Of a stretch of DNA of 64,000 nucleotides, positions 2,615 through 45,150 are shown in pieces. A program made the translations under genes and the position numbers. Every line of letters starts with the position of its first letter. Position 1 is the stretch's first letter. The notes below the pieces were generated by a model. The model ran no database searches and was not told where the DNA came from. It saw only the letters and a program-made list of their open reading frames with translations. This stretch comes from Candidatus Heimdallarchaeum aukensis (GTDB taxonomy: Archaea; Asgardarchaeota; Heimdallarchaeia; Heimdallarchaeales; Heimdallarchaeaceae), in NCBI GenBank assembly GCA_021513695.1, contig CP084166.1, forward strand, positions 64,001 through 128,000, written 5' to 3'.

Positions 2615-2709
2615 TTAATTATCGTATAGTACTCTTTAGAGTTCTGGGATTGGAATTGGGGCTATTATTTCCTGGAGTAAGTAATTGAAAATTGAAAAGA
2701 AGTGTAAAA

Positions 2710-14900: not shown

Positions 14901-16922
14901 AGATATGTGCAAGAAATTGAAGTAGCACATGAGCAAGGAGAGGATTATCTCATAGTTTCTTATTATTGGATAGAATATAAAGACCTAGGTGGCGGTATTA
15001 TTGTATGGATATTCCATGGAAAGATTACTGCTTACAACTTATCTTCGTCCTCACTAGATCAAATATGGGAAGTTAACTCTTACTATGCTGGAGGATTTAG
15101 AGGGGCAAATTTAATAGTAGATGATATTAATGGAGATGGAGATTCAGAAATATATGCATTTGGTGGTGGAATAAAATTACTTGATGCTAATGGTACTGAA
15201 TATTGGCGGGCTTACAACTATTTCTACTCTTATGATGCTGTTATATTTGATATAAATGATGATGGAATTAAAGATATAATTACTTCTTCAGGACAGAATA
15301 GTAAAGTTACAGCTCTTGATGGAAAAGATGGAAATGTTACTTGGAGTAATATACCCACCCAGAATATCTATGACTTAGAGATTAGTGACCCAGAAGGAGA
15401 AGATCCAATCCTTTATCTAGCTAACTCTAGAACAGATTATCAAGGAATAATTTTCTTAAACATTAGGAATGGTGGGTTCTTAGGTTACTATTACGACACA
15501 AGTAGTGATTTTCTAAATGATAACGCATTGGTACCAACCACTGTGGATTCAAAACCTGCAGTCTTAGCAGTTGATTATGACGCAGAGAAAATTTATCAAG
15601 TTCAAATAAATGAAACAGAACAAGTTTATGAGCATGATATTATACCTAAACTCTCCTTTGATCAAATACTTAAAACTGGAAAGAATGTTAACCCCGATAC
15701 TGTTATTTATGACAATCTAAACGACGATGAGTATGTAGAAATTTTCTATATACAAAATGGAAATGAGTCATTCATCTATAATCCAATCAAAGGTGAGTAT
15801 ATTGAAGAATATACTATCCCTACAAATGGGAGTGTTCTTTATGCTTTCAAAGCTAATTTATCTGACACTTCATTCTATGATTCTATTTTTATAATTACCT
15901 CTGAATACAAGGTAGGTGTTTTAGATCTCACTTCAATGAGTTATAAAAAGATATTGGACTTATCAGGTTATGTAGATGAAATTGCTTCATATGCTTACTT
16001 GGATATTACTGAAGATGTATTTATTTTAGGTTTCTTTGACTATACAAAGAAAGCATGGTACGTAGGCGCATGGAATATTAAAGGAGAAGAGGTATTCTCA
16101 CCTATTTACCAAGGTTCTCATAAACCAGATCAAATAAATGCAGGTAAATTACTTGATAAAGCCACGTATGAAGAAGGAGCAGCTTTTGTAATAACAAGCT
16201 TTGGTGCATACATATATGCTTATGATCTTAAGGGAACACAACTAGCTATGATTAAACAAGATGGACCTGCAGGTTTCACAGCTTTAGGAGAACTGAAAAA
16301 AGGATTAGGTTTTGAGTTTGTTTACTATAGGTTTGGAGATAAATTCTACTGTTATAACCTTAATACCATGACTGATGAATGGTCATCTACTTTAAGAAAT
16401 GACAATGAACTATTATCTATTGCTGTAGGATATATTGATAGCTCTACTAATCCTGATTATGCTAAAGTATTTGTTTCGCAGAGCGGTACAGGAATTTATG
16501 CATTTGATGATGTAGATAAAGAGTTATGGTATCACAGACATAATTCTTTTGTTGCTAAATTCCTTCATGTGATCAATGATGAAGCTTTAGGCAAGGTTCT
16601 TCAAGTTACAGATTATCATAGAACATTCTACATCAATGGAACAACTGCTGAAGTTTTATATGCTACAAGTACCTTGATGAAACAAGTTCTTTGGGTAGGA
16701 ACATGGTCTTCTCCAGACTCTGCATATGACTCAATAGCATTCTTTGATGGAAACTCATTCTATAGTCGAGGAATAGATGTTTCTTCTTCAGGAGCTTCAA
16801 CAGTGCAAGATCATATGGAAATCTCTGCAGAAAGGTTAACAAGACTTAGTACTCCAATAATTATAATGATGAGTGTAATGGTAACCATAATCACTCTTGT
16901 CTTCAGAAAAAATAAAAGTTAA
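8913..16922 (+). CDS. Giant (2669 aa) integrin-alpha-like surface protein. It has multiple FG-GAP/VCBS-type beta-propeller blades, BNR/Asp-box motifs, PQQ-like blades and a C-terminal TM anchor.
   Basis: N-terminal signal: LILSLLAIMISSLVVG. Repeated blade motifs at about 60-aa spacing include FGDTDNNDFLEIIA, DTDLDHLDDIIVVS, GDTNYNGLPDFVVGT, DIDGDGDVDIVVC, DLDQDGKGEIIVGDYD, DSDGDGYLELAAL, DLDLDGYGEFIIA, DINENGREELFIYG, DQDYDGFKELIIGG, DSDRDGRKEIMIADG, DTNGNGFPELIYS, DLNDDGINDMVVY, DINGDGDSEIYAFGG and DINDDGIKDIITS. BNR-like motifs are RSDDYGANW and VSDDGIHWSDP. The C-terminus is TPIIIMMSVMVTIITLVFRKNKS. Its start overlaps the upstream stop as TAATG, and it is preceded by a GGAGGTG Shine-Dalgarno-like sequence. 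Confidence 0.8.
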   Translation: MHVKNNLIWKKVLILSLLAIMISSLVVGMPNAPFVNAETNSAQSLPDTISLEEAKQLMQQINEGNGGGNFASVEQQIIDPDLDLSRLLADNPNEYQQTYQPWKSQAAVRSITISDDYEFMAVGGGYLFDNEVQVYRWNPDINQYAKVWVSGDSVIKGDVIDVDFGDTDNNDFLEIIATSSDGYFYVFEQEHIFDPVTNTENRFDLVYTSPYLGQVWGVEVNDTDLDHLDDIIVVSWDHKVHVYEYWLHSGYPFNSEHWITYREKWQSHDTGYHLSSLVVGDTNYNGLPDFVVGTREGAILVFENNGTILDIQGQPYPLAQDNSYKLIYADNESIWRPIYSMDIGNLDNSPGDEVVIASFAFNGYILRYDDYKGYYLQKLIKDFESWTLKDFYPADHYVDNGTAGQNVYFQDPNYTGTTVEEPILQSNPAFIKGNYPYNTGAAQNNDTCYTHFESNSTHAAWEVYDFGADEEGTGNGNDAADILLKFKTLLFDYIYRDDFIISISPDYEHWVTVDPSLINTFNVAASTKYLRINVDPILIENKWNYFRYINVTVISNSTKDYNLLSIELPYVYQTVSTALSAEVGTLMTSTDTNEEVIHAILGTVDGRLVAFKYDATSDSFVLSWDSWVDDRFTVGINIWDIEQVKNLGSMPMIYGVTDLETGYQLRISPSPGSQISQVIFDYTLFNIDGDSPVTGEFAIVGGNGDVYYFDNGFDYDAAQTTQYFSSINDYATYTGNISIGAVEIDTDYSQEELLIGHYDPSLSNQYDDFEDDSSDVLPADIKIWTQVSSKYELNISLYSLETTGQLREILKSAQSIPSAEGEDIDGDGDVDIVVCIENLYLLWNIGTPSNPEFILDSDYFKDINEVKGRRQFLHPQFVEFEMDGIYDLSIGYSNRVGATYFDNYGTALAPKWEERKELVNNFDEEATINVYNFTRPLWIKYSEFDEYSTLLLEHNTGKSYYDKYYIYTMLDDRNGDMVYFMISNKIQTSFMVASNPTVSRIEVNTFKSEEYGGIYKWRNFGFRAIISWTTAIDLYNWTLTVDSGDLDQDGKGEIIVGDYDSNVYIFEHMTNNTYKRAFRSPDMLQYVPTDETPYSWDKFGGYEGEFNQTIWNHVSYLLVNADSDGDGYLELAALAGTVLYVFEDTGIDDTYSYMYRLDVLRSSAGEYLKENGFLTPSGLTWAQDLDLDGYGEFIIAFEKQVFVYEPYSGTLYELFGNVASDDPETGHYNILGNARVFDNITINGMLCSDINENGREELFIYGSVDVDLLDYEEGFIVMIESIDLGYKIIWQGPTELVSRNIITDLEIADQDYDGFKELIIGGSKGVSIYEFVGGTTASFTQEGLITGHMNYPQMAAHSLFGKYSYNDDYDYRKQRSHDIRQIVYSGGSNNHSYISAFSEYNDTMGAYAIYQKVSHDGVNWLSSKLIAYWYSGGYISLYFPSLTQTSNYSLWLAVTCKFYSVGLGSVYGVLLYRSDDYGANWVFVDGLASEYIEEGSTNPIYSPTIFPTGPNSIGLVYIFRPNNTYSELYYGGLFDNGTVIPQTKIEGFDDFMFNGVDVDSKPDNSGVYAAAFSAKKYIEEKDDYDIWYCEFNSTYGLILEPRRLFTSFSVEHTPSITYVHNDAYSRLLTFDSSGLQKAMTLSYGMVSDDGIHWSDPDILAEYPEYIIPPTKSNPYPKISGFSNSWSIYDLGFRAPKVAPTYDGKFILLTKFDATIVYFSFPIFYIYYYNDYVSQIYPLNFTSFVGLNTVTDLAVGDSDRDGRKEIMIADGYRAEMFELLNTKNRKQLYTSKWYSPEHDNPVSDVTMFDTNGNGFPELIYSVQGEDIYVYDVVNIHLPKADLHKLQSTTLDLSGAGKVITRIKSDLNDDGINDMVVYCEGGKMYGILGNNLSILWTLEDSLVSPNWFLEESIYHGNSALIFVNSNGTTLWIDKKTGQVITSLDLGEGSYTLNPIATMLNYTKDNTMDIAIKGDAPGHIYLFDGNNGSLLKDLTFDTERYVQEIEVAHEQGEDYLIVSYYWIEYKDLGGGIIVWIFHGKITAYNLSSSSLDQIWEVNSYYAGGFRGANLIVDDINGDGDSEIYAFGGGIKLLDANGTEYWRAYNYFYSYDAVIFDINDDGIKDIITSSGQNSKVTALDGKDGNVTWSNIPTQNIYDLEISDPEGEDPILYLANSRTDYQGIIFLNIRNGGFLGYYYDTSSDFLNDNALVPTTVDSKPAVLAVDYDAEKIYQVQINETEQVYEHDIIPKLSFDQILKTGKNVNPDTVIYDNLNDDEYVEIFYIQNGNESFIYNPIKGEYIEEYTIPTNGSVLYAFKANLSDTSFYDSIFIITSEYKVGVLDLTSMSYKKILDLSGYVDEIASYAYLDITEDVFILGFFDYTKKAWYVGAWNIKGEEVFSPIYQGSHKPDQINAGKLLDKATYEEGAAFVITSFGAYIYAYDLKGTQLAMIKQDGPAGFTALGELKKGLGFEFVYYRFGDKFYCYNLNTMTDEWSSTLRNDNELLSIAVGYIDSSTNPDYAKVFVSQSGTGIYAFDDVDKELWYHRHNSFVAKFLHVINDEALGKVLQVTDYHRTFYINGTTAEVLYATSTLMKQVLWVGTWSSPDSAYDSIAFFDGNSFYSRGIDVSSSGASTVQDHMEISAERLTRLSTPIIIMMSVMVTIITLVFRKNKS

Positions 16923-17113: not shown

Positions 17114-17791
17114 ATGTTGATGGTACCTACTCAGATGAAAAAAATAACCATACTAGGGACAACTGGTAGTGGAAAGACCACCTTTTTAGAAGCTTTATTT
17201 GGTGATTTTGAAAAAAATGATGTTAAAAGAGATTTGAGTAAAGAAAAAAGTTCAAATTGTGATTTTATTCCTTTGAAAAATAATACATTCAAAGAAAGTA
17301 CAACAACAATAAGTTTGAATGTCATTAATTCATTGCTTTATTTGACTACATTTAATCGATTAGGTTTAGAAAAGTTCGAAAATAGAGACAATATTGACTT
17401 TGAAAATGTTGAAGAGATTTATCAAATAGTTTTCAATGATCCTGCAGGACAAGAAAGATTTGATTTCATGCAAGAGATAGCAGTAAGAGGAGCAAACCTA
17501 GTAATTATAATGGCTGATGGCACAAATATCTCGAGTTTAGAAAAAGTAGTTCATTATATTTCGTTGGTAAAAATTGAAGAAAATCTATCTAAAAAGAAAA
17601 TACCGACTATTATTTTCATCAACAAATCTGATTTAAAGGAAAAGGGTGTTTATTTAGGAAAAAATGTAGCTGAGCAGATTATTTATTCAAGCATTCTTGA
17701 TGAGAAATTACTTATTTATGAAACTTCTAACCTTAAGAGAGAAACATATGATGAACCTTTGAGGATTATTTTTAACTATCTTTCATACTAA
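17114..17791 (+). CDS. Ras-superfamily small GTPase (Rab/Ras-like G motifs) with an unusually long insertion between the P-loop and switch II.
   Basis: G1 is GTTGSGKTT, G3 is DPAGQERF (compare Rab WDTAGQERF) and G4 is NKSD. About 87 residues separate G1 from G3, against about 40 in canonical Ras/Rab. An alternative start at 17135 (MKKITILG) is possible. Confidence 0.75.
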   Translation: MLMVPTQMKKITILGTTGSGKTTFLEALFGDFEKNDVKRDLSKEKSSNCDFIPLKNNTFKESTTTISLNVINSLLYLTTFNRLGLEKFENRDNIDFENVEEIYQIVFNDPAGQERFDFMQEIAVRGANLVIIMADGTNISSLEKVVHYISLVKIEENLSKKKIPTIIFINKSDLKEKGVYLGKNVAEQIIYSSILDEKLLIYETSNLKRETYDEPLRIIFNYLSY

Positions 17792-17843: not shown

Positions 17844-18818
17844 ATGAGCGTAAAAATAACCTCAGAATATATAGAGCTGCTGAATAAAGCAGTTGCAAGA
17901 GAATTACAAGTTTCTGTTCAATATTTTCTACAACACGCTAAAATTGAAAAAATAATGAGAAAAGTTAAAGCTGAAAATATTTTACTTGATTCCACAACTT
18001 ACGACCAGATAGGTCAGATTTTAAAGAAACTAGCAATAGAAGAAATGAAACATGCAGGATCAATCGTTGAGAGAATTTATTATTTGGGAGGCAAGGCAAC
18101 AACTAAAGCTTTTAAACCTAAAATAGGAGAAAATATGCAAGAATTTATGAAATATGGCTTTGAAGCTGAAGAAGAAGCTTTAGAATTATATCGTGAAATA
18201 ATCCGCGAGGCAGGTAAATTAGGAGATTATGATACTAAAGAACTCTTTAGGAAAATCTATAGAGAGGAAGAAGAACATCTTTATACGTTTCAAGAATATT
18301 TAACAATTAATATTAGTGAACCTGGAGAGACAGCACCAAAGTCCGAATGGAGAAAAGTTTTTGACGACGAATACTTTGCTCTATTAAACAAAGCCTTAGC
18401 TTCAGAACTGTCTGCTATTATTCAGTACATAACCCAACATGAAAAAGCGAGTGCAATCAATCTTAGGAAAAAAGAAACGCCTTTAGAAGTAATTACCAAT
18501 ACAAACAAAGCGCAAGTTATTAGTAACATGTTAAAGAAAATCTTTATGCAAGAAATGGAACATTACGAAAAGATTTCTGAAAGAATATACATGTTGGATG
18601 GAGAATGTACATTGGATCCTGATCCTTTGCCAAAAGTTGGTGAGAGCGTAGAAGATTTCTTGAAACTGGGTCATCAAGCTGAAGATGAAGCTATTGTTCT
18701 TTATCGTAAAATCATAGAAGAAGCTACTAAGAAGGGAGATATAACTACTAAGAAGATGTTTGAAGAAATATTGATGGAAGAAGAAGAACATTACTGGATG
18801 TTTGATGACTACTTGTAA
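17844..18818 (+). CDS. Tandem-duplicated bacterioferritin/ferritin-like diiron protein (two Bfr-like four-helix-bundle halves in one chain).
   Basis: Half 1 reads ELQVSVQYFLQHA...EEMKHAGSIVERIYYLGG. Half 2 reads ELSAIIQYITQHEKA...QEMEHYEKISERIYMLDG. Both match the Bfr motif ExxH ... EMKHAD.LIERIL.LEG. Confidence 0.7.
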   Translation: MSVKITSEYIELLNKAVARELQVSVQYFLQHAKIEKIMRKVKAENILLDSTTYDQIGQILKKLAIEEMKHAGSIVERIYYLGGKATTKAFKPKIGENMQEFMKYGFEAEEEALELYREIIREAGKLGDYDTKELFRKIYREEEEHLYTFQEYLTINISEPGETAPKSEWRKVFDDEYFALLNKALASELSAIIQYITQHEKASAINLRKKETPLEVITNTNKAQVISNMLKKIFMQEMEHYEKISERIYMLDGECTLDPDPLPKVGESVEDFLKLGHQAEDEAIVLYRKIIEEATKKGDITTKKMFEEILMEEEEHYWMFDDYL

Positions 18819-18888: not shown

Positions 18889-19254
18889 ATGAGTAATATA
18901 AAGAAACTCACTTTTTCTGTAAATCAAAGTAGAAGAGTGATTCGTGCAGCAGAAAACAAGAAAATTGAACCTAAAGAATTGCTTAAAGGTTATGAGCTTA
19001 TGGTAAATACCCTCTTTAAGCATTGGAAAGAAGAATATGCTGAAACTATGGAAATTGACTTTCAAACATTTTTTTATGAAATAATGAAATATGCTGAAGT
19101 TAAATATAGATTAGAAAAGACCAAGTCTGATCTAAAAAAAATAAAAGAAATGTCAGAGTTGTTAAACGAAGCCATTGAAGAATATAAAGAAGATTATACA
19201 ATTTTGAAGGCTATAGAAGATAGTTTGAGAAATATGGGTGTTGAGTGGGTTTAA
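18889..19254 (+). CDS. Hypothetical small, charged, helical protein (121 aa).
   Basis: The ORF contains no recognisable motifs. It directly abuts the next ORF (TAAATG) upstream of the serine recombinase. Confidence 0.45.
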   Translation: MSNIKKLTFSVNQSRRVIRAAENKKIEPKELLKGYELMVNTLFKHWKEEYAETMEIDFQTFFYEIMKYAEVKYRLEKTKSDLKKIKEMSELLNEAIEEYKEDYTILKAIEDSLRNMGVEWV

Positions 19255-19704
19255 ATGAAATTGAATATTACCCAATTTAAGATTAAATTCAAGGATAAAA
19301 TAGAAATTGAAAATGAAGAGAAATTTGCAGATAATATAATCTATTATTATCCGTTTTTTCAATCTTTAGATAAAAATGAGTTAGAGAAGTCTCTTCAATC
19401 AATAAGAGAAGAAAAAAAAGTCTTGGAGAAAAAATTCAAAAAAATAAAAGAAGAGTTCTCAGATATACTGGGAGAGATAGCAAAAATACGTTTCACAGCT
19501 AATGAATTATATAATCAAAATAGGGTTATAGCTCTGACTACAGGGTTATTAAGACATAAGCTGATAGATTTACATAATAATAATGTTGAACTTCCTTTTG
19601 ATTATGAGGAAACACTTAAGTTTGTAGAACATTTTATTTATAGATATTTAACTAAAAAAGAAGATAAAAGACTTGTTGCCCAGCTACCTTTTAAAGAGAT
19701 TTGA
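19255..19704 (+). CDS. Hypothetical coiled-coil protein (149 aa).
   Basis: The ORF has a K/E-rich predicted coiled-coil segment (EKSLQSIREEKKVLEKKFKKIKEEF). It forms an operon-like unit with the 18889 ORF and the recombinase. Confidence 0.45.
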   Translation: MKLNITQFKIKFKDKIEIENEEKFADNIIYYYPFFQSLDKNELEKSLQSIREEKKVLEKKFKKIKEEFSDILGEIAKIRFTANELYNQNRVIALTTGLLRHKLIDLHNNNVELPFDYEETLKFVEHFIYRYLTKKEDKRLVAQLPFKEI

Positions 19705-19745
19705 GAAAATTCACACTTTTTCTATTTGGAATAGTAATACTAAGT

Positions 19746-19753
19746 TTTATATT
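19746..19753 (+). promoter_or_regulatory. Candidate TATA box (TTTATATT) for the serine recombinase gene.
   Basis: It lies about 31-38 nt upstream of the ATG at 19784. Confidence 0.3.
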
Positions 19754-19783
19754 AAAAATAGAGAACCTTATTGCAAGGTCAAA

Positions 19784-20506
19784 ATGATTCGTTGTGTTAT
19801 TTATGCTCGTACATCTACAGCTGATCAAACTAGTGGGTTAGAAACACAGATTGAAGATGTAACGGCTAAGATATATCAAGCTGGAGATAGAGCAATAGTA
19901 AGAATAATTAAAGATCAAGATATTGCAGGCGATAGTGACCCTGAATATAGACCCGGATTTAAAGAAATCCTAGAAATGGCAAAGAATAATCAATTTGATG
20001 AGTTATGGTCTCAATCAAGAGACAGATTGTCAAGAGACGTTGATATTTTGGGTTATATTCGCATTCTTCTAAAAAAGAATAATGTTTCTATAGTTTGTTT
20101 AGATGATGAAGAAAACAAGGTTATTTCTAGAGTTAAAGACCTATTTGGTGAAATGGAACTTCAAAAATATAGAGAAAAAAGATACAAAGGAATGATGAGA
20201 AGACTAAAGGAACAAAAAGTAATGTCAAGACCTCCTTTTGGTTATAAAGTGAATGAGGAAGGAAAATTAGTTGTAGATGAGGAAAAAGCAGCAATAATTA
20301 GAAGGCTCTTTTCTGAATTTGACAACCCTTTGGCTTCTTTGAAAAGTTTAAGTTTGAAATATAATTTATCTGTCTCTACACTGCGAAATATTCGTTCAAA
20401 CCCAATTTATCGAACTGGTGAAGTACGTTGGGCAGGAAAAATTGCTTATTATGTTGATCCTATTGTCCCTGAAAATAAAGATCAAAAACTTAAGTTAGAC
20501 GACTAA
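19784..20506 (+). CDS. Serine recombinase: a resolvase/invertase-type catalytic domain plus a partial large-serine-recombinase-type 'recombinase' domain.
   Basis: MIRCVIYARTSTADQ contains the catalytic Ser in the Y-A-R-x-S-T-x-x-Q context, and the DRLSRD motif is present. The C-terminal region has the RPPFGYKV (PFGY) motif typical of the recombinase domain of large serine recombinases. The track ORF start (19673) is TTG; the ATG at 19784 gives a canonical N-terminus. Confidence 0.8.
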   Translation: MIRCVIYARTSTADQTSGLETQIEDVTAKIYQAGDRAIVRIIKDQDIAGDSDPEYRPGFKEILEMAKNNQFDELWSQSRDRLSRDVDILGYIRILLKKNNVSIVCLDDEENKVISRVKDLFGEMELQKYREKRYKGMMRRLKEQKVMSRPPFGYKVNEEGKLVVDEEKAAIIRRLFSEFDNPLASLKSLSLKYNLSVSTLRNIRSNPIYRTGEVRWAGKIAYYVDPIVPENKDQKLKLDD

Positions 20507-24912: not shown

Positions 24913-26769
24913 ATGAATAAAATAAATATTATATTAACCTATTTAGTGGTTTCTAGTTTTCTTATCCTCTCTGGATCTGTTTATGCTGCCGATGTTTCTG
25001 GTTCAACAATTGAAGCTTCACCTTCTGATATTTATGAGTATCAGATAACTAGTATTACTGTTACTTCAAAGAATGGAGTAGGTACTGCACTTGGAGGAGT
25101 AACTGTAAATATCTCTGCTCAAGAAGGTTCCTTTGTTGAAAATGAGATGAAGTACATAATCTTAACTACAAATGACAATGGTATTGCTTCCGCTGATTGG
25201 AAAGCTCCTGAAGCTAAGAGTGCAGTAGAAGCTAAAGAAGTTACAATAACTGCTGTATTCACTTCTGGTAGTGATACAGCTACAAAAGAATTAAATGTAA
25301 CTGTTCATCCTCTTTCTTTTGATACAAGTACTATAACTATAAGCCCAGATCCAGTTTACGAGACACAGAATTCAACTATTGAGATAACTGCAAAAGGTAC
25401 ATACGGAACCATTGCAGAAGCAAATGTTCATCTAACTTGTGACGATGGAGTGTTTCCAGATTCTGATACTTTCGAGATAGATGTCCAAACAGATTCAGAT
25501 GGAAAAGTTCAAGTTATCTGGAATGCTGATTTAACTACATTAGTTTCTGAACTAAACTATGTTAACTTTACTGCTACAGTAACTTATAGCGGTTCTACAG
25601 CCACTAAAGACTTGACTGGAACTATTTATGTTAATGAACTAGATTTGAGTAGTTCAACAATGGTTGCGTCAAGTACGGATGTAGGAGGAGGGACACATGT
25701 TTCTATTGTTGTTACTGCAGAGGGAGCTTTAGGAGTGATTTCTAACGCAAGAGTAGAGTTAGACGCTCTTGATGGTAAATTCTCCAATAACGAACAAGAT
25801 ATTACAGGATATACTAACTCTTCAGGAATGTATGAGACAGAATGGATAGCTCCTGATGTTTCAAATGCTATTGACATTATAATCTCAGGAACAGTTTCTG
25901 TTGATAACACTCTCGCAACTAAGGATCTAGATGATATAACAATTACTGTTAATCCTATAGTTCACAACTTCACAATAAGTTTAGATGCAAATGCTACAGA
26001 AATAACAGCTGGAGAACCTGTAGAATTAACTGTAACTTTGACTAATGAATTAGGTTATACTGTAGAAGATGCAGAGATTACTTTCAATGCTATGGAAGGA
26101 GAATTTGTAGGTTTTGATGCTCTAACTGCTAAGATTAACAGTTCATCTGAAGGAATTGCTTCTGTAGTATGGAATACAACTGATTTATCTCCACCAATAC
26201 CTAATGGACAGGATTATCCTATAACTATTAATATAGTTAAAGAATTCTATAATTCTGAAGAAGATTCAATAGATATACATGTTAATCCTATTATCCTTAA
26301 ACTAAGCTCTAGCACTACTCCAGATAAGACAACTATAACTCAAGGAGAAAATGTTACATTTACTGTTTTTGTTAGTGCTGGAGAACAAGGAGTAGAAGGA
26401 GCAACTGTAACTATAACCGCTCTAGCAGGTACTTTTGCCAGCAGTGGGAATCAAATTACTTCACTAGAAACAAATTCCACTGGATATGTTACTTTTGTAT
26501 GGATAACAGAAGATATGACAGTAACAACTGCAAAGAACTATACATTTACTATCGATGCAGCCCTTCCAGGATATGATTCATCAGAACAAGAAACAGTTAC
26601 TATATTAGTTAATCCAGTTGATACAGGAGGAGCAGAACCTACACAAACTACTACTCCTACAGGAGGATTGTCTACAATGACTAAACTAGGTATCCTTCTT
26701 GGAGCACTTGGAGGAGTGGTTCTATTAGGAGGTTTAGGTTACTTCTTAATTAGTAGACGAGGTATATAA
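24913..26769 (+). CDS. Secreted cell-surface protein: about six Ig-like (Big_1/invasin-like) domains, a Thr-rich linker and a C-terminal TM anchor.
   Basis: The signal peptide is MNKINIILTYLVVSSFLILSGSVYA. Blocks of the form TxDxxGxAxxxWxAP recur (TNDNGIASADWKAPE, TDSDGKVQVIWNAD, TNSSGMYETEWIAPD, SSSEGIASVVWNTTD, TNSTGYVTFVWITED). The C-terminus is TQTTTPTGGLSTMTKLGILLGALGGVVLLGGLGYFLISRRGI. Confidence 0.6.
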   Translation: MNKINIILTYLVVSSFLILSGSVYAADVSGSTIEASPSDIYEYQITSITVTSKNGVGTALGGVTVNISAQEGSFVENEMKYIILTTNDNGIASADWKAPEAKSAVEAKEVTITAVFTSGSDTATKELNVTVHPLSFDTSTITISPDPVYETQNSTIEITAKGTYGTIAEANVHLTCDDGVFPDSDTFEIDVQTDSDGKVQVIWNADLTTLVSELNYVNFTATVTYSGSTATKDLTGTIYVNELDLSSSTMVASSTDVGGGTHVSIVVTAEGALGVISNARVELDALDGKFSNNEQDITGYTNSSGMYETEWIAPDVSNAIDIIISGTVSVDNTLATKDLDDITITVNPIVHNFTISLDANATEITAGEPVELTVTLTNELGYTVEDAEITFNAMEGEFVGFDALTAKINSSSEGIASVVWNTTDLSPPIPNGQDYPITINIVKEFYNSEEDSIDIHVNPIILKLSSSTTPDKTTITQGENVTFTVFVSAGEQGVEGATVTITALAGTFASSGNQITSLETNSTGYVTFVWITEDMTVTTAKNYTFTIDAALPGYDSSEQETVTILVNPVDTGGAEPTQTTTPTGGLSTMTKLGILLGALGGVVLLGGLGYFLISRRGI

Positions 26770-26770
26770 T

Positions 26771-29494
26771 ATGTTTAGGAAGAAGAGAGGAGTTTCTCCT
26801 GTAATTGCAGTTGTTCTGATACTTGGTCTTACCTTAGCTGCAACTGCAATTGTTTTTCTAGTTGTACTTCCAATGGTAAATCAAAGAAATGCTCCTGAGT
26901 TATACATTGATGAGACTTCAGCACCTTTGTTTATGGATTACGATAATGATGGAAAATGTGACTATATAACTGTCCAAGTTGGAAATATCGGTGGGAGTGC
27001 GTTTAATGTTACTAATATAACGATCGTAGCTTCCAAAGATAGTTCGTCCAACTTCTACACTTGGGAGTTAATGGATAATGTAAATGGGACAATAGGTGTA
27101 AATGATCGTGTTCTATTAAAGATGAGGGCTGCTGTAGATGATACTGATGAAATAGATGATGGTTCAAGTCTAATTTTAACACTAATAAATGACCAATATA
27201 TTGTAGGTCTAGAACTTGGGACAATTACTGTTGAACAAGGAGAACCACTATCTATTGAATTTACTGATTCTTCAGGAGATCCTGTTGTTGGTTCTAATAT
27301 TTATTTCTACTATTCCACAGGAGAATTTGCTTACACAGGGGAACCAACATCTGTTAGTGGTGTTTCAAACACTTATCTATTTCCAGGGACTTACTATGCA
27401 AAAGCTCAATCTGGAATGCAATTCTACACCACAGATGTTTTTATTCATCCAGGAACACCCCAATTACATTTAGAGATGTCTGGAGGAACTTTAACTGTTA
27501 AAGTTAAATCAGGTACAACACCTTTAAGTGGTGTAAGAACTTATTTGTATGATACCTATAGCCATTATTTGAATAAATACTCTGATACTAATGTTGATGG
27601 ACTAGCTACTTATTCTCTTGATGATGGAGTGTATAAGATCAGAGCAGATGTTTCTGGAATAGTCTATTATTCAGAAAATATAAACTTCCCAAATACAACT
27701 TATATAGAAATTGACACAGGAGGAGGTACTGTTTATGCTCACGTAATTGATGGAGGAAATAATCCAATAGTCAACACTCGTGTCTATCTTTTCACCTCAA
27801 GTGGAAGCTACACTGGTAAATACGGTAACACCAATGCTACAGGGTATGCTGAATTTGCTGCAGTTTCAGGAGGAACTAATTATAAGTTTAGAGTAGATTA
27901 CTTGGCTTATAGAATCTGGAGTCAAACCTTTGGAGCTTCAGATGGGGCAGTTATTGATGTTAATGTAGGAGGAGGAACAATATATGTCAATGTAACTGAT
28001 GGTGACGGCAATCCAATAAAGAACACTCGTACATATCTCTTTACTTCAAGCGGAAGTTATACTGGTAAATACTCGAATACAAATACAAGTGGAATAGCCA
28101 CTTACAGCTCTATAGCTGCTGGAGATTACAAGATTAGAATTGACTATCTTGCTCAAAGATTCTGGAGCCCAGTTTTCACTGCTTCAAATGGATTAATAGT
28201 TAATGCATCTATAGGAGGAGGAACACTTTATGGAAATATTACTGTGGCTGGAAATGCTTTAGTTAACACTCGTGTTTATCTTTTCACTTCAAGTGGAAGT
28301 TATACCGGTAAATATGGAAATACAAATGCTTCTGGAATAGTAACATTTGTTGGAATAGGCACTTCTAACTATAAGTTAAGGGTAGATTACCAAGCAGATC
28401 GTCATTGGTCAGATGTTTTCTATTTCAATGAAACAATGGTTTATCACTTTGAACTAGGTGGAGGAACAGTTTATGCCAATGTCACTGCTGGAGGGGTACC
28501 AGTTGTCAATACTAGAGTCTATGTATTCACTGATAGCGGAAGTTATACAGGAACTTATGCAAACACTAATGCTTCAGGAATAGCAACATTCAACACATTA
28601 AGCAGTGGAGACTACAAATTCAGAGTTGACTACCTCGCAAAAAGATTCTGGAGTGATGTATTCACTGCCAGTGATGGTTTAGTTGTAGATGTTGATTTAG
28701 GTGGAGGAACAATATATGTCCATTTGACTAATACCTATGGTGTAGATATTGCTAATGTACGTCTCTATCTCTTCACTTCAAGTGGAAGCTACACAGGTAA
28801 GTATACAAACACAAATGCTACGGGTTGGGGAGTTTTTGCAGGAATAGGAGAATCAGACTATAAAGTACGTGCAGACTATCTAGCAAAAAGATACTGGTCA
28901 AACGTATTTACTGCAACCGACGGATTAAATGTAGATTTCAATATAGGTGGAGGAATAGTTTGGTTACATGTGTTTGACGGAAGTGGGACAAATATAAGCG
29001 GACCAAGAGCTTATCTCTTTACTGAGAGCGGAAGTTATACTGGAATCTACAGAAACCTGGATGCTAATGGATATCTGAACTTTACTGGAATAGGTGATGG
29101 TAACTTCAAATGGAGAGTCGACTATCTTGCAAAAAGATTCTGGTCTGATGTTTTCTCTGCGACAAACGGTACAACTTTAGAATTCAACATCGGTGGAGGA
29201 ACAATATACGTTCATCTAACAGTTAATGGTGCTGATGTTAATAACGGAAGAATATACTTGTTTACAGATACTGGTAGTTATACTGGAAAATATGCAAATA
29301 CAAACTCTACAGGTTGGGCAGTGTTCTATGGAATTGGAGCAGGAGATTATAAGTTGAGATATGATTATGATGGAACACGTTATTGGAAGAATTTCTCCGC
29401 AGATGCAGATTTACAGGTAGGGTTTGCTATTGTAACCACAATGACCCTTTCTGTATTAACAGTTCAACCTTCTAAGTCAAAAGAAAATTATTAA
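26771..29494 (+). CDS. Archaeal class-III (type IV pilin-like) signal peptide protein, followed by about nine tandem ~82-aa CarboxypepD_reg/transthyretin-like repeats.
   Basis: N-terminus: MFRKKRGVSPVIAVVLILGLTLAATAIVFLVVLP. Repeats follow the pattern GGGTIYVxVTDGxGNPIxNTRVYLFTSSGSYTGKYxNTNATGxAxFxxIxxGDYKxRVDYLAKRFWSDVFTASDGLxVDVNx. The start lies 1 nt after the stop of the upstream Ig-like gene. Confidence 0.7.
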   Translation: MFRKKRGVSPVIAVVLILGLTLAATAIVFLVVLPMVNQRNAPELYIDETSAPLFMDYDNDGKCDYITVQVGNIGGSAFNVTNITIVASKDSSSNFYTWELMDNVNGTIGVNDRVLLKMRAAVDDTDEIDDGSSLILTLINDQYIVGLELGTITVEQGEPLSIEFTDSSGDPVVGSNIYFYYSTGEFAYTGEPTSVSGVSNTYLFPGTYYAKAQSGMQFYTTDVFIHPGTPQLHLEMSGGTLTVKVKSGTTPLSGVRTYLYDTYSHYLNKYSDTNVDGLATYSLDDGVYKIRADVSGIVYYSENINFPNTTYIEIDTGGGTVYAHVIDGGNNPIVNTRVYLFTSSGSYTGKYGNTNATGYAEFAAVSGGTNYKFRVDYLAYRIWSQTFGASDGAVIDVNVGGGTIYVNVTDGDGNPIKNTRTYLFTSSGSYTGKYSNTNTSGIATYSSIAAGDYKIRIDYLAQRFWSPVFTASNGLIVNASIGGGTLYGNITVAGNALVNTRVYLFTSSGSYTGKYGNTNASGIVTFVGIGTSNYKLRVDYQADRHWSDVFYFNETMVYHFELGGGTVYANVTAGGVPVVNTRVYVFTDSGSYTGTYANTNASGIATFNTLSSGDYKFRVDYLAKRFWSDVFTASDGLVVDVDLGGGTIYVHLTNTYGVDIANVRLYLFTSSGSYTGKYTNTNATGWGVFAGIGESDYKVRADYLAKRYWSNVFTATDGLNVDFNIGGGIVWLHVFDGSGTNISGPRAYLFTESGSYTGIYRNLDANGYLNFTGIGDGNFKWRVDYLAKRFWSDVFSATNGTTLEFNIGGGTIYVHLTVNGADVNNGRIYLFTDTGSYTGKYANTNSTGWAVFYGIGAGDYKLRYDYDGTRYWKNFSADADLQVGFAIVTTMTLSVLTVQPSKSKENY
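27476..29441 (+). repeat. Diverged coding tandem repeat of about 246 bp (about 9 units) within the 26771 gene.
   Basis: The GGGT...NTRVYLFTSSGSYTGKY...DYLAKRFWSDVF blocks are visible at both protein and nucleotide level (e.g. ggaggaggaacaatatatgt recurs). Confidence 0.7.
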
Positions 29495-29570
29495 TTATCT
29501 CTTTCTTTTTTCTTTTTTCCTTTTGCAATTCTATTTATAAGAAATTGTTTGTTATAAATTCTCTTAAAAA

Positions 29571-31488: not shown

Positions 31489-32976
31489 TTAGTTCAGATA
31501 GAAGTAAGCACCTGTGTTTCCGTCAAATTGTTGGGGTGTGTCTCCACCGCTGTAAGGATAAGCGTTGAGGGCATAGTTGAATATTGTTTCTAATGCTGTA
31601 GAAGAAGATCCTCCGTAGTAGTTAATCCAGGAGTATTCCAAGAAGTAATATGTCCATGCTCCATTTTGATGTGTAGAATCATCATATCCATAACCGTTTT
31701 CTGTACAAGTTGTTGTTAAGTAAACGTTGCTTTTATTGGGCATGTTCATTAAGTTATCTCCAAAACCGCCACTGAAACAATGATCCAAGAAAACGAATAT
31801 TTTCTCAGCTACTGCATCATCTAGTATTACAGCTAGTTCGGTATCATAAAGGCTACCATCTTCTCCGTTTTCTCCAGAGTTGCAGTCCCACATGCATAAG
31901 TAAGAGCTTCCAGAACCATCTCCAGAACCATGTCCTGAGCTTATGTAAGCAATAACATCATCTGCATCAGCGGTGCCAACTAGCCAGTTTAGAGCTTGTT
32001 TGACATTGTATTCTGTAGCTAAACCTGTGTAAATTGGGTAGTTACCAGAATTTGTGTCTCCATAAATTCTTATGTTAGAAGATGACCAACCTAATGTTCC
32101 AGTAAGGAAGTTATACCAATCTGTTGCATCTTCGTCACAGTAGGAGAGGTCACTAATTACTTCATAATCACTAATTCCAACGATAACAGCATAGTAATTG
32201 GTTACACCATCACCAGTACTTCCTCCACTACTATATTCCACTGTAACGGTTAGATCGTAAGCACCTGAACCACTGTATGAATGGACCATTATGTACCATC
32301 TTCCTTCTCCTGGATCATCATAGGTTACATCTTCTCCTCCGTAAGTATATCCTCTCCAATCGTAAGTACTAGTAGTTGGTTCGGCGCCCAGTCTTCCATA
32401 TAGATCATAATCGGATGAACCACAAGTTAAAACTGAACGCATGCTAATTGCATTAGCCGCAACATCAATGTACCACATTTCACTGTCTCCAGTGGCACTT
32501 AAGCTGCTTGTAACAGTTTGTCCATTACTTAGAGCTCCGCCAGTACTTCCTCCGCTACCACCTTCATATTCAATAAGGTCAATCTTGAAACCCCATTTTG
32601 TAACAGAGTAATCTGTAACTAGCCTGATTTTAATTGTGTCACCATTAGAAGCTGCAGTCCATCCTCCACTTGAATAGGTTCCTGTTAATCTGTGTAAAGT
32701 ATTTCCAGCATAGTCATAGACGTACAAATAATCATAATTTGTCTCTACTTCTATGTACGTAAAATGAACTTTTATACTGGTTGCACCAGGTTTAGTAATA
32801 GTCCAAGTGTAATCGAAGTTATTGCTGTAGGGATGACTACTCTCAAGAATATAAGTTTCTTGAGTTGCCCTTGCATTGTTATCCATTAATTGATTTTCTG
32901 CATTTGTCACTGTAGGTAAAACCATTACCAATAGTGACACAATTATTGCTCCAATAACTAATTTTTTATTTATCAT
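31489..32976 (-). CDS. Secreted clan-CD cysteine peptidase (legumain/caspase-like, C13/C14-type His-Cys dyad) with an N-terminal CUB-like domain and a PPC-like domain.
   Basis: The signal peptide is MINKKLVIGAIIVSLLVMVLPTVTNA. The CUB-like block is SSHPYSNNFDYTWTITKPGATSIKVHFTYIEVETNYDYLYVYDYAGN...GFKIDLIEY. A PPC-like beta-sandwich follows. The catalytic region has YAVIVGISDY, AYISSGHGSG (His) and FVFLDHCFSGGF (Cys, compare the legumain D-A-C-E-S-G motif). Confidence 0.5.
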   Translation of the reverse strand: MINKKLVIGAIIVSLLVMVLPTVTNAENQLMDNNARATQETYILESSHPYSNNFDYTWTITKPGATSIKVHFTYIEVETNYDYLYVYDYAGNTLHRLTGTYSSGGWTAASNGDTIKIRLVTDYSVTKWGFKIDLIEYEGGSGGSTGGALSNGQTVTSSLSATGDSEMWYIDVAANAISMRSVLTCGSSDYDLYGRLGAEPTTSTYDWRGYTYGGEDVTYDDPGEGRWYIMVHSYSGSGAYDLTVTVEYSSGGSTGDGVTNYYAVIVGISDYEVISDLSYCDEDATDWYNFLTGTLGWSSSNIRIYGDTNSGNYPIYTGLATEYNVKQALNWLVGTADADDVIAYISSGHGSGDGSGSSYLCMWDCNSGENGEDGSLYDTELAVILDDAVAEKIFVFLDHCFSGGFGDNLMNMPNKSNVYLTTTCTENGYGYDDSTHQNGAWTYYFLEYSWINYYGGSSSTALETIFNYALNAYPYSGGDTPQQFDGNTGAYFYLN

Positions 32977-36163: not shown

Positions 36164-39100
36164 TTGCCAATTCTGATAAGGTTGAAATTAAGAAGTTCTT
36201 TTCTGATTATTATTGTACTTGTAGTTTTATCGTTTAATTCTTTAATTCTGGGTGAAAATGAATCAGAATATACTCTTCTATATACAGAGAATATAGATGA
36301 TGGAGGAATTATCGAAACTTTTCCTGTAATCGATATGAATCAAAACATCCATGTTTTTGTCCATTTGCGAACTTCAGTTGAGGATAAATTGATAGTTCTT
36401 TATAATGATGGTTCAAAGTTAATTCAATCCAATTTACTGGAAGACGTATCAGTAATAACATTTTATGATAGTTTCATTTATGATGATCAATTGTTTGTGA
36501 TTTTTAGCGCGGTAAATCCTTTAGGTACTATAAGTTTTTATGAATACTCTTGGTCTCCTTCTTCCAACAAGACTATTCCTATTGTTTCCATCGCTTCTAG
36601 TGTTTTACCATACATTAATTACTTCAAAGTTACAATCGATAATGGTACAACACATTTATTTTTCAACAAATTCTATGGTGATAAAAACGAATTTATGAAC
36701 ATCACTCATTATTACGGAAGATCTGGTTCATTCAAAAAAGAATATTTTTCCATTACAAATCCATATTACAGAGTAGGTTTAGATTTTGTCGTAAATAATG
36801 GTACAATATATTACTTTTATCAAAAATGGGAAGATGAATATAACAAAGGTGAATTTACAGGAGACTTTGGTTTTGGAATTTTAGATAATCAAACTTTTTA
36901 TCCTCAAGTAACTAAAATTTTCTCAAAGAAAATTGTTGGCAAAGTAGGAAAATTTGATGCAGAAAAAGGGATTAATGATAAAATATTCACATTCGCATTT
37001 TTTGAACAAAAGAAGATGTATTATGGATGGTTCAATGGTACTCATGTTTTAAATATGACTCAAAATCTATTAACACAAGATAACTATTATGATTTCTCTC
37101 TTAATACTGAAAATGATACAGAACAAATGTTCTTAATCACTAGACCAGAAGGTTTCGATTATGTTTCTGTTTTCAGAGGGACCTATAACAATCTAACACT
37201 TCTCTGGGAATTTCAACCAATAACAACTTTAGAGAAGATTTCTCCATATGGTTATTCATTCACACTCTTCGATTCTAGCTACTTACTACTTTATAATTCA
37301 ACAGTAAGTACAAAAGAAATCCCACATCCAATAGGTTTACAATATAAGAATGAAACTGCAGTTTCTTTGATATTAGTAACTAATCTCCCAATTTCTCCAA
37401 TAGAACCAATTATAGACAATGGTTTACAATTGTATAATCCTATTACTTACTTCATTAAGAATAACATTCCAATAGTAATTGCACTATCTGTGCTACTATT
37501 AATTGTTATTGCTCTTCTTACAGTATTGTGGATAAGAAAAGCAAAAACCATTAAAGCCTTCCTTTATGACACTTCAGAGGTTGGAGAACATAAAAAGTTC
37601 ATATTATTTTTCTTGAATTTAAACAGATACATATCTAACTTCTTTAGTACAGTAAAAACAATTGGTTTTTCGAATAAAAAGCGAACGTTAATTACTCTTG
37701 CAGGTTTTATAATCACAGGATATCTCCTTGCTTCTGCTATCATTATTTCTCAAAGTGAGCAATCCTCCTTAGTTAAGTCTTACTACAATGCAAATAATAT
37801 TATTTCAGATGGAAAAGCAAGTGTAAGTCTAATAACAAATATAGTTAGAATCAATGAAGGTTCAGCTACAATTGCTAAAAATTATGATGCTCTTGCTAAA
37901 TCACAAATTAGTTCAATACTTAGCGATCTCACACTTTCCAAATATATAACTTCTATAGAATCAGTTTATTATAGTTTTGTCCGTGCTCAACATCCTACTG
38001 TAGATTTTAACAAAGAAGTTAAGATATCTGCTTTTCCTGATGATTCTGAACCTTACCTTTCTTCTGTTATAACAGAAGGTCGTGCTCCACAAGCTGATAA
38101 TGAAATTTTAATCCAAGGATCACTCTTTAGAGATTTTGATTTAACTCTTAATGACAATATTACTATAGTTCTTTCTCAAAAAGCTGTTTTATCTAATGAA
38201 ATTCAGGATTATCAAGTGAATCTTACAATAGTAGGAATCTTTGAACAAGTAACAACTTCAGAACTTTATAAAACTAGTCTATTTCTTGGTGAATCAAATG
38301 ACATTTTTGGTTTGCTCGAAACTTCTCAAATAGTCTTATACAATACCAACTTCTTTGAACTTCTTTCAAACAGTAATAAAATAAACATGCAACTTAGAGG
38401 AATCTATCAGTTTAATTTAGACTTTTCAAACTTCAGGATTGAAGAACGTACATTAATATCAAAAGAATATGAAAGACTTGTAGGACTTACTTATTCATTT
38501 AGTCATGATAGTGCTTCTGCAGTAGCATTCACACAGGAGATAATAGAGTTCTTTGAGAACTTCAATAGCTACTACTTGAATAACATGACTCGTTTGTTTA
38601 TCTTTGCATTTCCAGCAATTCTACTGTCAATCTTTATGATCTTTGAATCTTCAGAACTCTTTTCTTCAAGTTATCAGCAAGAAGTTTCTGTACTTAAAAA
38701 TAGAGGTATTAGAAGAAGAAGGATGGTCTCGATTTATATTTGGATCAGACTATTTGAAGTTATATTGGCTACAATTATAAGTTACGGAATTGCCATTCTT
38801 ACTTCGATTCCTTTAATTAGAGTAAATGGTTTCCTAACTTTCAATAATAGAGATACAGAACTAAGAATAGGAAATCTTCCTGTTGAAATGCTTTTAACTG
38901 CTCTAATTCTATTTACTATTTCGATTCCAAGAATTCTTTTGATTGTAAGAAGAGAAAGAAGGATTGAAAAAACACCTAGTAAACTTTCAAAACTATTCAA
39001 AAGAATCAGCTGGAGAGAAGTAAGTTTTCTACTTATAGGTATGCTGATTTTTGGAGTATTCTACTATTTGACCTTTGTAGCATATATTGAAGCAAGTACG

Positions 39101-40462: not shown

Positions 40463-41340
40463 TGTAAATGAGTGGAATATATGTTAAAGATTTAATAAAA
40501 GTGTATCATGACCCAGAAACAGATGTAAGGGTCTCTGCTTTACGTGGGTTAGATCTATTTGTAAAAGAAGGGGAAGTTGCTTCAATAATAGGTCCATCGG
40601 GTGCAGGAAAAAGTACACTAATCAAAATTCTATGTGGTTTAGAAACAGCTTCTGGAGGATCAGTTTATATAGGTGATACAAATATAATTGAACTTTCAGA
40701 AAAGGAGATGCAAACGTTTAGATTCAAAAATATTGGTATAATAAACCAATTTGTTGCCCAGAATTTATTACCTAATTTAACTGTAGAGCAGAACATCCTT
40801 TTACCACTAAAAATGAGATATGCTAGTAAACAAAGAGCAAGAAAAGAACTAGAGGAATTGTTATCTGCTTTAAATATAGAAAGGATACGTTATAATCCTG
40901 TAACCAAAATCTCAGGAGGAGAAGCAGTAAGAACAAGCATTGGAGTTACACTAGCTAAAAAACCTAAAATCATACTCGCGGACGAACCTACAGGACAATT
41001 GGACACTGCTAACACAAACAATATTATTGAAACTTTTAAAGAACTGAATGAAGCTTTCAACACTACTATTCTAGTTGTGACACATGACTTGAGGTTTAGA
41101 AACGCTTTCAATAAAAGCTATATTATTCGTGATGGGAGACTAGTTGGTGTAAATGTTGAAATGGACCGTTCTGAACTTGATTTTCTTATTAAACCTCAAG
41201 AGTCTTCTCTCCAATCTGTAATTGACAGCAGCCAATTCGTAAGATTACCTGATGAAGTATACCAAACTGGAGAATTCAAGCATATTGTTGAATTTGATAT
41301 TCATCCTTCAAAGAAATTTTCAATTTTATTCAATCCTAAC
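37531..41340 (+). repeat. Copy A of a perfect 3810-bp tandem direct duplication.
   Basis: 37531-41340 is identical to 41341-45150. The embedded six-frame ORFs are identical in both copies (e.g. 38782..39000 = 42592..42810, and 39064..39360 = 42874..43170). The length is 3 x 1270, so the duplication is in-frame. Confidence 0.9.
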
Positions 41341-41364
41341 GATAAGAAAAGCAAAAACCATTAA
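40468..41364 (+). pseudogene. Duplication-generated truncated ABC ATPase copy. It contains NBD1 only and gains a chimeric 7-aa tail after the junction.
   Basis: The first 291 codons are identical to the 44278 ATPase. After the junction at 41341 the frame reads DKKSKNH and stops. Confidence 0.5.
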
Positions 41365-44272: not shown

Positions 44273-45150
44273 TGTAAATGAGTGGAATATATGTTAAAGA
44301 TTTAATAAAAGTGTATCATGACCCAGAAACAGATGTAAGGGTCTCTGCTTTACGTGGGTTAGATCTATTTGTAAAAGAAGGGGAAGTTGCTTCAATAATA
44401 GGTCCATCGGGTGCAGGAAAAAGTACACTAATCAAAATTCTATGTGGTTTAGAAACAGCTTCTGGAGGATCAGTTTATATAGGTGATACAAATATAATTG
44501 AACTTTCAGAAAAGGAGATGCAAACGTTTAGATTCAAAAATATTGGTATAATAAACCAATTTGTTGCCCAGAATTTATTACCTAATTTAACTGTAGAGCA
44601 GAACATCCTTTTACCACTAAAAATGAGATATGCTAGTAAACAAAGAGCAAGAAAAGAACTAGAGGAATTGTTATCTGCTTTAAATATAGAAAGGATACGT
44701 TATAATCCTGTAACCAAAATCTCAGGAGGAGAAGCAGTAAGAACAAGCATTGGAGTTACACTAGCTAAAAAACCTAAAATCATACTCGCGGACGAACCTA
44801 CAGGACAATTGGACACTGCTAACACAAACAATATTATTGAAACTTTTAAAGAACTGAATGAAGCTTTCAACACTACTATTCTAGTTGTGACACATGACTT
44901 GAGGTTTAGAAACGCTTTCAATAAAAGCTATATTATTCGTGATGGGAGACTAGTTGGTGTAAATGTTGAAATGGACCGTTCTGAACTTGATTTTCTTATT
45001 AAACCTCAAGAGTCTTCTCTCCAATCTGTAATTGACAGCAGCCAATTCGTAAGATTACCTGATGAAGTATACCAAACTGGAGAATTCAAGCATATTGTTG
45101 AATTTGATATTCATCCTTCAAAGAAATTTTCAATTTTATTCAATCCTAAC
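41341..45150 (+). repeat. Copy B of the 3810-bp tandem direct duplication.
   Basis: The junction is caatcctaac|gataagaaaagc at 41340/41341. The right end is caatcctaac|aacgttacaaag at 45150/45151. Confidence 0.9.

Follow-up and report, generated by a model that had tools for sequence, protein, structure and literature searches.

The archaeal type IV pilins of the Pilin_N family (PF07790, formerly DUF1628), among them those of S. solfataricus (8fjs), S. acidocaldarius (Aap, 8q30) and Pyrobaculum (8fk7, 6w8u), are proteins of 130-140 residues in which a short basic leader and a cleavage context of the type [KR][GA]/hydrophobic (a slash marks the cut here and below) precede a long N-terminal helix and a beta-sandwich head. 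Bacteria are also known to make modular pilins, such as PilB and PilC of Streptococcus sanguinis and CofB/TcpB, in which an N-terminal pilin carrier has a non-pilin module grafted onto its C-terminal side. Raynaud et al. 2021 describe these proteins as adhesins that probably sit at the pilus tip, and include multi-repeat cases, for example an 860-amino-acid (aa) protein with 12 repeats (PMC8179133). Here we describe a pair of adjacent genes, gene 1 and gene 2, in a 64-kb stretch (the window) of the genome of the Asgard archaeon Candidatus Heimdallarchaeum aukensis, and we propose, at what we judge to be roughly even chances, that the pair forms a cell-surface adhesion module around an archaeal modular pilin, encoded by gene 2, with the gene 1 product as its co-conserved anchored partner. 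Gene 2 shares with the Pilin_N pilins the leader, the cleavage context, the helix and the head, and it shares with the bacterial modular pilins their architecture, since a pilin module (aa 1-157) is followed by nine CarboxypepD_reg repeats (aa 158-882), as well as the proposed adhesive role and tip location.

Further likenesses lead beyond the pilins proper. In the sugar-binding proteins of the Sulfolobales bindosome, as in gene 2, a class III (prepilin-type) signal and helix are placed on a large extracellular protein that is encoded away from assembly genes. The stalks of CarboxypepD_reg/Cna-B type in bacteria, and the N-terminal arrays of YD/RHS proteins in Desulfobacterota, are built from the same 80-aa repeat family as gene 2. 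Gene 1, a protein with several immunoglobulin (Ig)-like domains that is tied to a pilin-like gene, recalls the Ig-fold, surface-layer (S-layer)-like and adhesin-like proteins of archaeal type IV filament loci (arCOG05057, arCOG05616; 10.64898/2026.04.22.720090); in this comparison, which is one of descriptions only, gene 1 differs in that its tie is to one modular pilin instead of an assembly locus. The kinds of protein at issue are known, be they proteins with class III signals, modular pilins or surface arrays of Ig-like domains, and gene 2 already bears the name 'type IV pilin' at NCBI (UJG40929.1). New are the occurrence of the gene 2 architecture in a pilin from archaea, its strict association, throughout Heimdallarchaeia, with an Ig-like protein that is anchored, and an archaeal-specific sequon in a repeat that is shared with bacteria.

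The source is a circular genome of 3,081,793 bp, of which the window, with a G+C content of ~31%, makes up about 2%. An earlier note on this DNA had singled out the two open reading frames (ORFs), and both are real, exactly as it placed them. Gene 1 (24913-26769, + strand) encodes a 618-aa type I membrane surface protein whose sequence matches UJG40928.1, annotated as a hypothetical protein, exactly; gene 2 (26771-29494, + strand) encodes the 907-aa modular type IV pilin-like protein. Their spacing of one nucleotide (nt) was also read correctly in that note, as the stop codon TAA of gene 1 occupies 26767-26769, a single base follows, and the ATG of gene 2 comes next. Gene 1 contains in its 3' end a Shine-Dalgarno-like GAGGT (26759-26763, +), placed 7 nt before this ATG, that may serve to couple translation of the two genes, while a T-rich tract (29500-29524, +) directly 3' of the gene 2 stop is, as read from the sequence, a candidate archaeal transcription terminator. 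The pair is flanked by genes for an amidohydrolase and a radical SAM enzyme, both on the opposite strand and unrelated to it.

The prepilin-type signal and pilin module of gene 2

The N-terminus of gene 2 reads MFRKKRG/VSPVIAVVLILGLTLAATAIVFLVVLPMV. The leader MFRKKRG (26771-26791, +) is predicted to be cleaved between G7 and V8 (KKRG/VSPVIA), and the NCBIfam model TIGR02537 matches here over aa 5-32. Among all ORFs of the window, gene 2 is the only one to fit a FlaFind-like class III pattern with a strongly hydrophobic stretch behind it, and hydropathy gives no second hydrophobic segment beyond this N-terminal one. The motif [KR][GA]/[VI]SP[VI][VI]A is present, at residues 6-18, in every one of the 26 full-length archaeal homologues. 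Two curated hidden Markov models (HMMs) score above their cut-offs, Pilin_N from Pfam at 37.3 bits (cut-off 25.2) and TIGR02537 at 21.4 bits (cut-off 20). Motif, HMM scores, conservation and the predicted fold described below together support a class III signal, as the earlier note had proposed, and not an ordinary Sec signal or transmembrane anchor. The features of the two genes are well beyond chance; they recur in full-length archaeal homologues, 26 in number and as little as 32% identical.

After cleavage the protein would begin with a hydrophobic alpha-helix (26792-26890, +; aa 8-40), modelled as helical over aa 10-40 with a predicted local distance difference test score (pLDDT) of ~96, and would continue into the pilin head, an eight-strand beta-sandwich of 117 aa (26891-27241, +; aa 41-157). 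The AlphaFold2 model of residues 1-160 from which this description is taken was built on an alignment of 25 N-terminal regions and reaches a pLDDT of 92; in it the pilin module (aa 1-157) is complete, with the N-terminal alpha-helix and the beta-sandwich head of solved archaeal pilins. When the module was searched with Foldseek against the PDB, archaellins came out on top (E 2.6e-5 to 9e-4). Structural comparison gave scores of 9.2 for the M. hungatei archaellin (5tfy), 8.8 for the type IV pilus of P. calidifontis (8fk7), 8.7 for that of S. solfataricus, a Pilin_N protein (8fjs), 8.6 for S. acidocaldarius FlaF (4p94), 8.4 for the S. acidocaldarius Aap pilin (8q30) and 8.0 for the P. arsenaticum pilus (6w8u). 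A search of the gene 2 sequence itself against PDB chains returned no match.

It might still be argued that gene 2 is not pilin-like at all, that an ordinary Sec signal or signal-anchor is at work and that the prepilin resemblance is fortuitous. That cleavage is a prediction, and that a search of the window and 15 related loci brought up no peptidase gene, would suit such a reading, but we regard it as extremely unlikely in view of a motif shared by all 26 homologues, two curated HMMs above their cut-offs, a predicted fold that matches solved archaeal pilins and archaellins, and the homology to short Asgard pilins that is set out further on.

Between strands 53-56 and 65-74 of the head lies a loop of the DxDxDG type, DYDNDGKCD (26936-26962, +; aa 56-64), in which none of D56, Y57, D58, D60, G61 and D64 varies among 25 sequences. 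Its motif makes it a candidate Ca2+ site, and this conserved loop sets the head apart from the Pilin_N pilins introduced above. Archaellins have a conserved metal site of their own, which in M. jannaschii FlaB1 is formed by D139/D141/S143/N150/D153 and lies within a later insertion (PMC6500986); equivalence with the gene 2 loop was considered and rejected, because the position differs. Gene 2 was likewise rejected as an archaellin, there being no match to Arch_flagellin (PF01917) at E <= 0.1 and no arl genes in the window, and its likeness to archaellins is limited to the shared pilin fold.

Repeats, anchored partner and conservation of the pair

Measured against the Pilin_N pilins, gene 2 adds ~750 residues of repeats. 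The earlier note had put these at about 900 aa of tandem ~82-aa beta-sandwich units resembling CarboxypepD_reg. Nine tandem CarboxypepD_reg (transthyretin-like) repeats of 75-83 aa each are indeed present (27242-29416, +; aa 158-882), but they span ~725 aa and begin only after the 117-aa pilin head. The family assignment itself stands, with PF13620 at 56.8 bits (cut-off 32.3), the nine units having been delineated by sequence. Repeats R3-R9 share 39-67% identity with one another as protein and 51-66% as DNA, which indicates that they are old and did not arise by recent duplication; the divergent units are R1 and R2. The repeats are also the best conserved part of the protein, being 62-73% identical in the closer orthologue group, where head and tail reach 36% and 29%, and the architecture of ~9 repeats and the length of ~900-930 aa recur in most full-length orthologues. 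Beyond the repeats there is only a short, non-conserved tail (29417-29491, +; aa 883-907), which is 13-29% identical among orthologues and in which hydropathy gave no transmembrane helix and the NCBIfam scan no sorting signal.

The same ~80-aa repeat is found in bacterial YD/RHS proteins (P0019-P0060) from sediment metagenomes, several of them named Desulfobacterota, at 30-35% identity over ~80% of gene 2. Unlike gene 2, these proteins have Sec signals and YD/RHS parts, some with a toxin core, and they carry neither a pilin module nor a sequon in each repeat. In the T[DN]xxG loop of the repeat an N-x-S/T sequon occurs in 117 of 139 archaeal cases (84%), compared with 16 of 181 bacterial ones (9%), which suggests an N-glycan on most repeats of the archaeal proteins. 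The sharing of the repeat is compatible with an inter-domain transfer of the array, and the per-repeat sequon, absent from the bacterial versions, would represent the adaptation of a shared building block to the archaeal surface. From the bacterial modular pilins gene 2 differs in that its pilin module is of archaeal type and not IPR012902, in that it has a conserved partner gene, and in that its graft is a nine-domain transthyretin-like rod, known from sequence, with no recognisable ligand-binding end domain.

The partner, gene 1, starts with a hydrophobic N-terminus, modelled as a helix over aa 3-17, that forms a Sec-type signal peptide (24913-24987, +; aa 1-25); by the -3/-1 rule the probable cleavage falls after VYA (VQA in orthologues), and the V-x-A pattern is kept in the alignment. 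Where the earlier note counted about six Ig-like domains, the AlphaFold2 model, built from a 10-sequence alignment (pLDDT 84.6), shows an all-beta ectodomain of five tandem beta-sandwich domains of the macroglobulin (MG)/Ig-like kind (24991-26616, +; ~aa 27-133, 134-242, 243-348, 349-459 and 460-568). The Thr-rich stalk and C-terminal membrane anchor of that note were borne out. A disordered linker rich in Thr, Gly and Pro (26617-26676, +; aa 569-588), with the sequence DTGGAEPTQTTTPTGGLST and a pLDDT <50 at aa 572-587, leads into a transmembrane helix (26677-26751, +; aa 589-613) and a basic tail, SRRGI; the helix is seen in hydropathy and in the model, and it is kept in orthologues.

A Foldseek search with the gene 1 model placed the MG-domain arrays of C3, C5, alpha-2-macroglobulin and TEP1 at the top (E ~1e-17), with low global template-modelling (TM) scores because the domains are arranged differently in gene 1. 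No Pfam or NCBIfam family scored above its cut-off, the best being MG4 at 22.5 bits (cut-off 24.7), with Filamin and DUF4198 weaker, and a profile search against PDB chains gave no match. An archaeosortase substrate (PGF-CTERM and relatives) was considered and rejected, as there is no NCBIfam match at E <= 0.1 and no PGF-type C-terminal motif. By homology search the gene 1 family is found only in Heimdallarchaeia.

Homologues of the two genes are neighbours in 8 loci and also on 2 other contigs, and additional contigs show the co-occurrence of both. In the sister species Ca. H. endolithica (loci L001 and L002) gene 2 is 93% identical, a 618-aa gene lies directly upstream of it, and the downstream gene order is that of the window; locus L005, with 73% identity for gene 2 and 54% for gene 1, also has the gene order of the window. 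The flanking genes are different, namely urocanase and ATP-grasp, in L003 (58% and 45%) and L006 (60% and 41%). More distant still are L004 (38% and 33%), which has a four-domain, 505-aa version of gene 1, and L008, where gene 2 is 32% identical and gene 1 is recognised weakly (E 8e-4) in the same architecture. In L007 (37% and 31%, the latter at E 8e-41) the two genes are divergently oriented, and a JGI contig repeats this arrangement, in layout only, with a 505-aa neighbour. Gene 1 evolves the faster of the two, with 88 versus 93%, 54 versus 73% and 45 versus 58% identity in matched genomes. The term operon, used in the earlier note, therefore fits H. aukensis and its close relatives, but not the distant relatives, in which a gap of ~80-215 nt separates the genes or their orientation is divergent. 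Since the two genes stay adjacent through rearrangement and where their flanks differ, their adjacency points to a functional link between gene 1 and gene 2, and the comparison supports the view that they behave as one conserved surface module. A literature search found no paper dealing with the gene 2 family.

Short pilins, assembly genes and the fate of gene 2

A profile search with the gene 2 head retrieved 89 proteins, mostly Pilin_N proteins of 130-157 aa from Heimdall and other Asgard genomes. The Ca. H. aukensis genome itself encodes, elsewhere, a 133-aa pilin (P0161, UJG40477.1) that is 36% identical to gene 2 over 107 residues (E 3e-15); both have KKRG/VSPVIA, and 26 of the 33 residues of leader and helix (79%) are the same. 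The helices of large and short pilins moreover vary together. Modular pilins of the Heimdallarchaeaceae type best match short pilins with ...AAAAIVFLVV[LI]PM (56-84% over 32 aa), and for the more distant ones the best matches are short pilins with ...AAAIVYFVVVP[LM]L (72-97%). Such co-variation is what co-assembly would predict, and common descent would also explain it.

Gene 2 might instead be a major subunit in its own right, self-polymerising into a thick, sheathed or bottle-brush filament in which the nine-repeat arms pack round the core or radiate from it. We consider this improbable. The high conservation of the repeats, and the recurrence of their number and of the overall length, would agree with it, as would the documented archaellins whose extra outer domains form a sheath, but the ~750 extra residues that each subunit would bring far exceed the additional outer domain of that precedent (PMC13357602), and the 133-aa pilin would be a much more conventional major subunit. 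Cultured Hodarchaeales bear 15-25 nm helical filaments of unknown composition, with round tips of ~50 nm, at the zone of contact with their syntrophic partners (10.1101/2025.02.26.640444), and these too could be cited in its favour, provided that Hodarchaeales encode the gene 2 family. It is likewise a long shot that the thick filaments of Hodarchaeales are formed by the gene 2 family, whether by itself or jointly with gene 1 and the short pilins, although a cluster of nine-repeat arms at the tip of a pilus, or such arms wound round a pilin core, could give the shapes observed. Were it true, it would mean a lineage-specific organelle for attachment to partners in the closest known archaeal relatives of eukaryotes, and one built without a canonical assembly locus nearby.

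Under the explanation that we prefer, an adhesion module around a modular pilin, a prepilin-type peptidase would cut gene 2 after Gly7 and leave the hydrophobic helix and the head with its probable Ca2+ loop. This pilin module would carry a rod of nine transthyretin-like domains, most of them with a conserved and presumably occupied N-glycosylation site, and the rod would be ~30 nm long if estimated from the number of domains and a typical domain size. The module would let gene 2 enter a type IV pilus-like filament made mainly of the 133-aa pilin, probably at its tip or sparsely along it given the bulk of the protein, and the rod would thereby be held at a distance from the cell, where it could attach to a surface or a partner cell. 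Gene 1, co-expressed, exported by the Sec route and anchored at its C-terminus, would hold its five Ig/macroglobulin-like domains on a flexible Thr-rich stalk and work with gene 2, perhaps in physical contact, as a docking partner, co-adhesin or envelope adaptor. The earlier suggestion of a pilus-tip or fibre adhesin, or of an unusual filament subunit, is plausible in this light. We favour this explanation because Pilin_N and TIGR02537 lie above their cut-offs, the motif is found in 26 of 26 homologues, short pilins exist, their helices co-vary with those of the large ones, the gene pair is kept, the sequon-bearing repeats are conserved, and the bacterial modular pilins set a precedent.

Several observations weigh against it. 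The similarity of the helices could reflect common descent, or constraints shared through the membrane or the peptidase, and not co-assembly. No distinct terminal effector domain follows the repeats, so that gene 2 has no obvious ligand-binding part, and contact between the two proteins is an inference. The cognate prepilin peptidase, assembly ATPase and platform genes, which the earlier note had recommended seeking, did not turn up in a search that covered the 64-kb window, about 2% of the H. aukensis genome, and the 15 related loci. The window itself contains no prepilin peptidase and no ATPase or platform gene of the type IV filament (TFF) class; in 8 loci the pair has no TFF machinery gene within 10 kb, and in 6 loci (L010-L015) the short pilins have no TFF ATPase, platform gene or A24 peptidase within that distance. 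A motif scan of the DNA of the window and related loci for the T2SSE Walker A and the A24 GxGDxK yielded irrelevant matches only. The lack of assembly genes near gene 2 is a further difference from the archaeal Pilin_N pilins, and a 2026 survey describes type IV filament systems as a rarity among Asgard archaea, present in minimal form in a few Heimdallarchaeia (10.64898/2026.04.22.720090).

With no peptidase, ATPase or platform gene found, a fate without a filament becomes a serious rival, and on balance an unlikely one, in which gene 2 stays in the membrane as a fibril and the class III signal and helix act only as an N-terminal anchor, with or without cleavage. Together with gene 1 it would then contribute to the glycoprotein coat of an Asgard cell without an S-layer, or form a short pseudopilus like the bindosome. 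The missing assembly genes, near the pair and near the short pilins alike, and the reported rarity of the filament systems speak for this. Precedents can also be named, as class III signals on non-pilin surface proteins are known from the sugar-binding proteins of Sulfolobales (10.64898/2026.04.22.720090) and lokiarchaeal cells have numerous complex surface proteins and no ordered S-layer (PMC9834061); a glycoprotein coat would further agree with the richness of both gene products in N-x-S/T sequons. The bindosome parallel is imperfect, however, since gene 2 has no substrate-binding domain and no link to a transporter (the Pfam and NCBIfam scans gave no substrate-binding protein family, and the flanks are the amidohydrolase and radical SAM genes). 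Two further points speak against this rival. Gene 2 retains the complete pilin head and not just signal and helix, and the genome and the lineage keep short canonical pilins with matching helices, a sign that an assembly system of some kind is present.

The way of life of Asgard archaea is believed to involve close physical association with partner microbes, and their surfaces are known for the absence of a regular S-layer and for many uncharacterised proteins. Against this background, gene 1, gene 2 and the matching short pilin would, as an adhesion module, be concrete candidates for the attachment molecules of these archaea and for the unidentified filaments on their cultured relatives, and they would extend to archaea the principle of the modular pilin, of which the descriptions to date come from bacteria.

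The short pilin genes of Heimdallarchaeaceae have neighbours of their own that are kept between loci (L010 7864-9024 on the - strand, 9106-9405 and 10494-11192, with equivalents in L012 and L015). These are a membrane protein of 386-421 aa with a signal-peptidase-I-like SMWPT motif (Peptidase_S26 at E 1.2e-3, below the cut-off), an ORF11_beta-like protein of 99-106 aa and a Zn-ribbon protein. An FtsX protein of 1389-1397 aa with faint CarboxypepD_reg matches is encoded ~5 kb from the short pilin genes in two of these loci (L012 16052-20221; L015 15970-20163), and Arf-like GTPases are encoded ~6 kb from them in L010, L012 and L015.

Other genes in the window

Some other genes of the window deserve a brief description. 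Two giant ORFs with abutting ends (2692-8913 and 8913-16922, +) encode a 2073-aa protein with TSP3 repeats (bacterial, Ca-binding) and a 2669-aa protein with FG-GAP repeats, and are probably another large surface-protein pair. A Ras/Arf/Roc-like small GTPase, a typical Asgard eukaryotic-signature protein, is encoded at 17114-17791 (+). The 324-aa protein at 17844-18818 (+) has two ferritin-like stretches (Pfam Ferritin, 6e-45). It may be the orthologue of the dodecameric double-ferritin-fold protein described for the sister species Ca. H. endolithica in a 2026 preprint (10.64898/2026.08.25.747088).

A serine recombinase (Resolvase, 19673-20506) follows two small ORFs without Pfam matches, the three together occupying 18889-20506 (+) and possibly representing a mobile element. 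This trio is kept in L005, and the 10 kb that precede the pair in L001 of Ca. H. endolithica do not contain it; synteny of that locus with the window breaks upstream of the NIPA gene.

Downstream of the pair, the product of 31489-32976 (-) is a secreted protein of 495 aa. It has a CUB domain at its N-terminus, and in its C-terminal half SGHGSG and DHCFSGG are reminiscent of a caspase-like His/Cys dyad, with no Pfam support. ATP-binding cassette (ABC) systems of the MacB/FtsX type with very large ectodomains (1432 and 1006 aa) occupy 36164-46065 (+). They are syntenic with the pilin genes among close relatives only, and a link between the gene pair and these MacB-like genes was rejected on that ground. 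Finally, a 610-aa ORF at 48322-50154 (+) gives a weak match to the Sec7-like HUS domain (E 1.3e-4, below the cut-off) and is a possible eukaryotic-signature protein.

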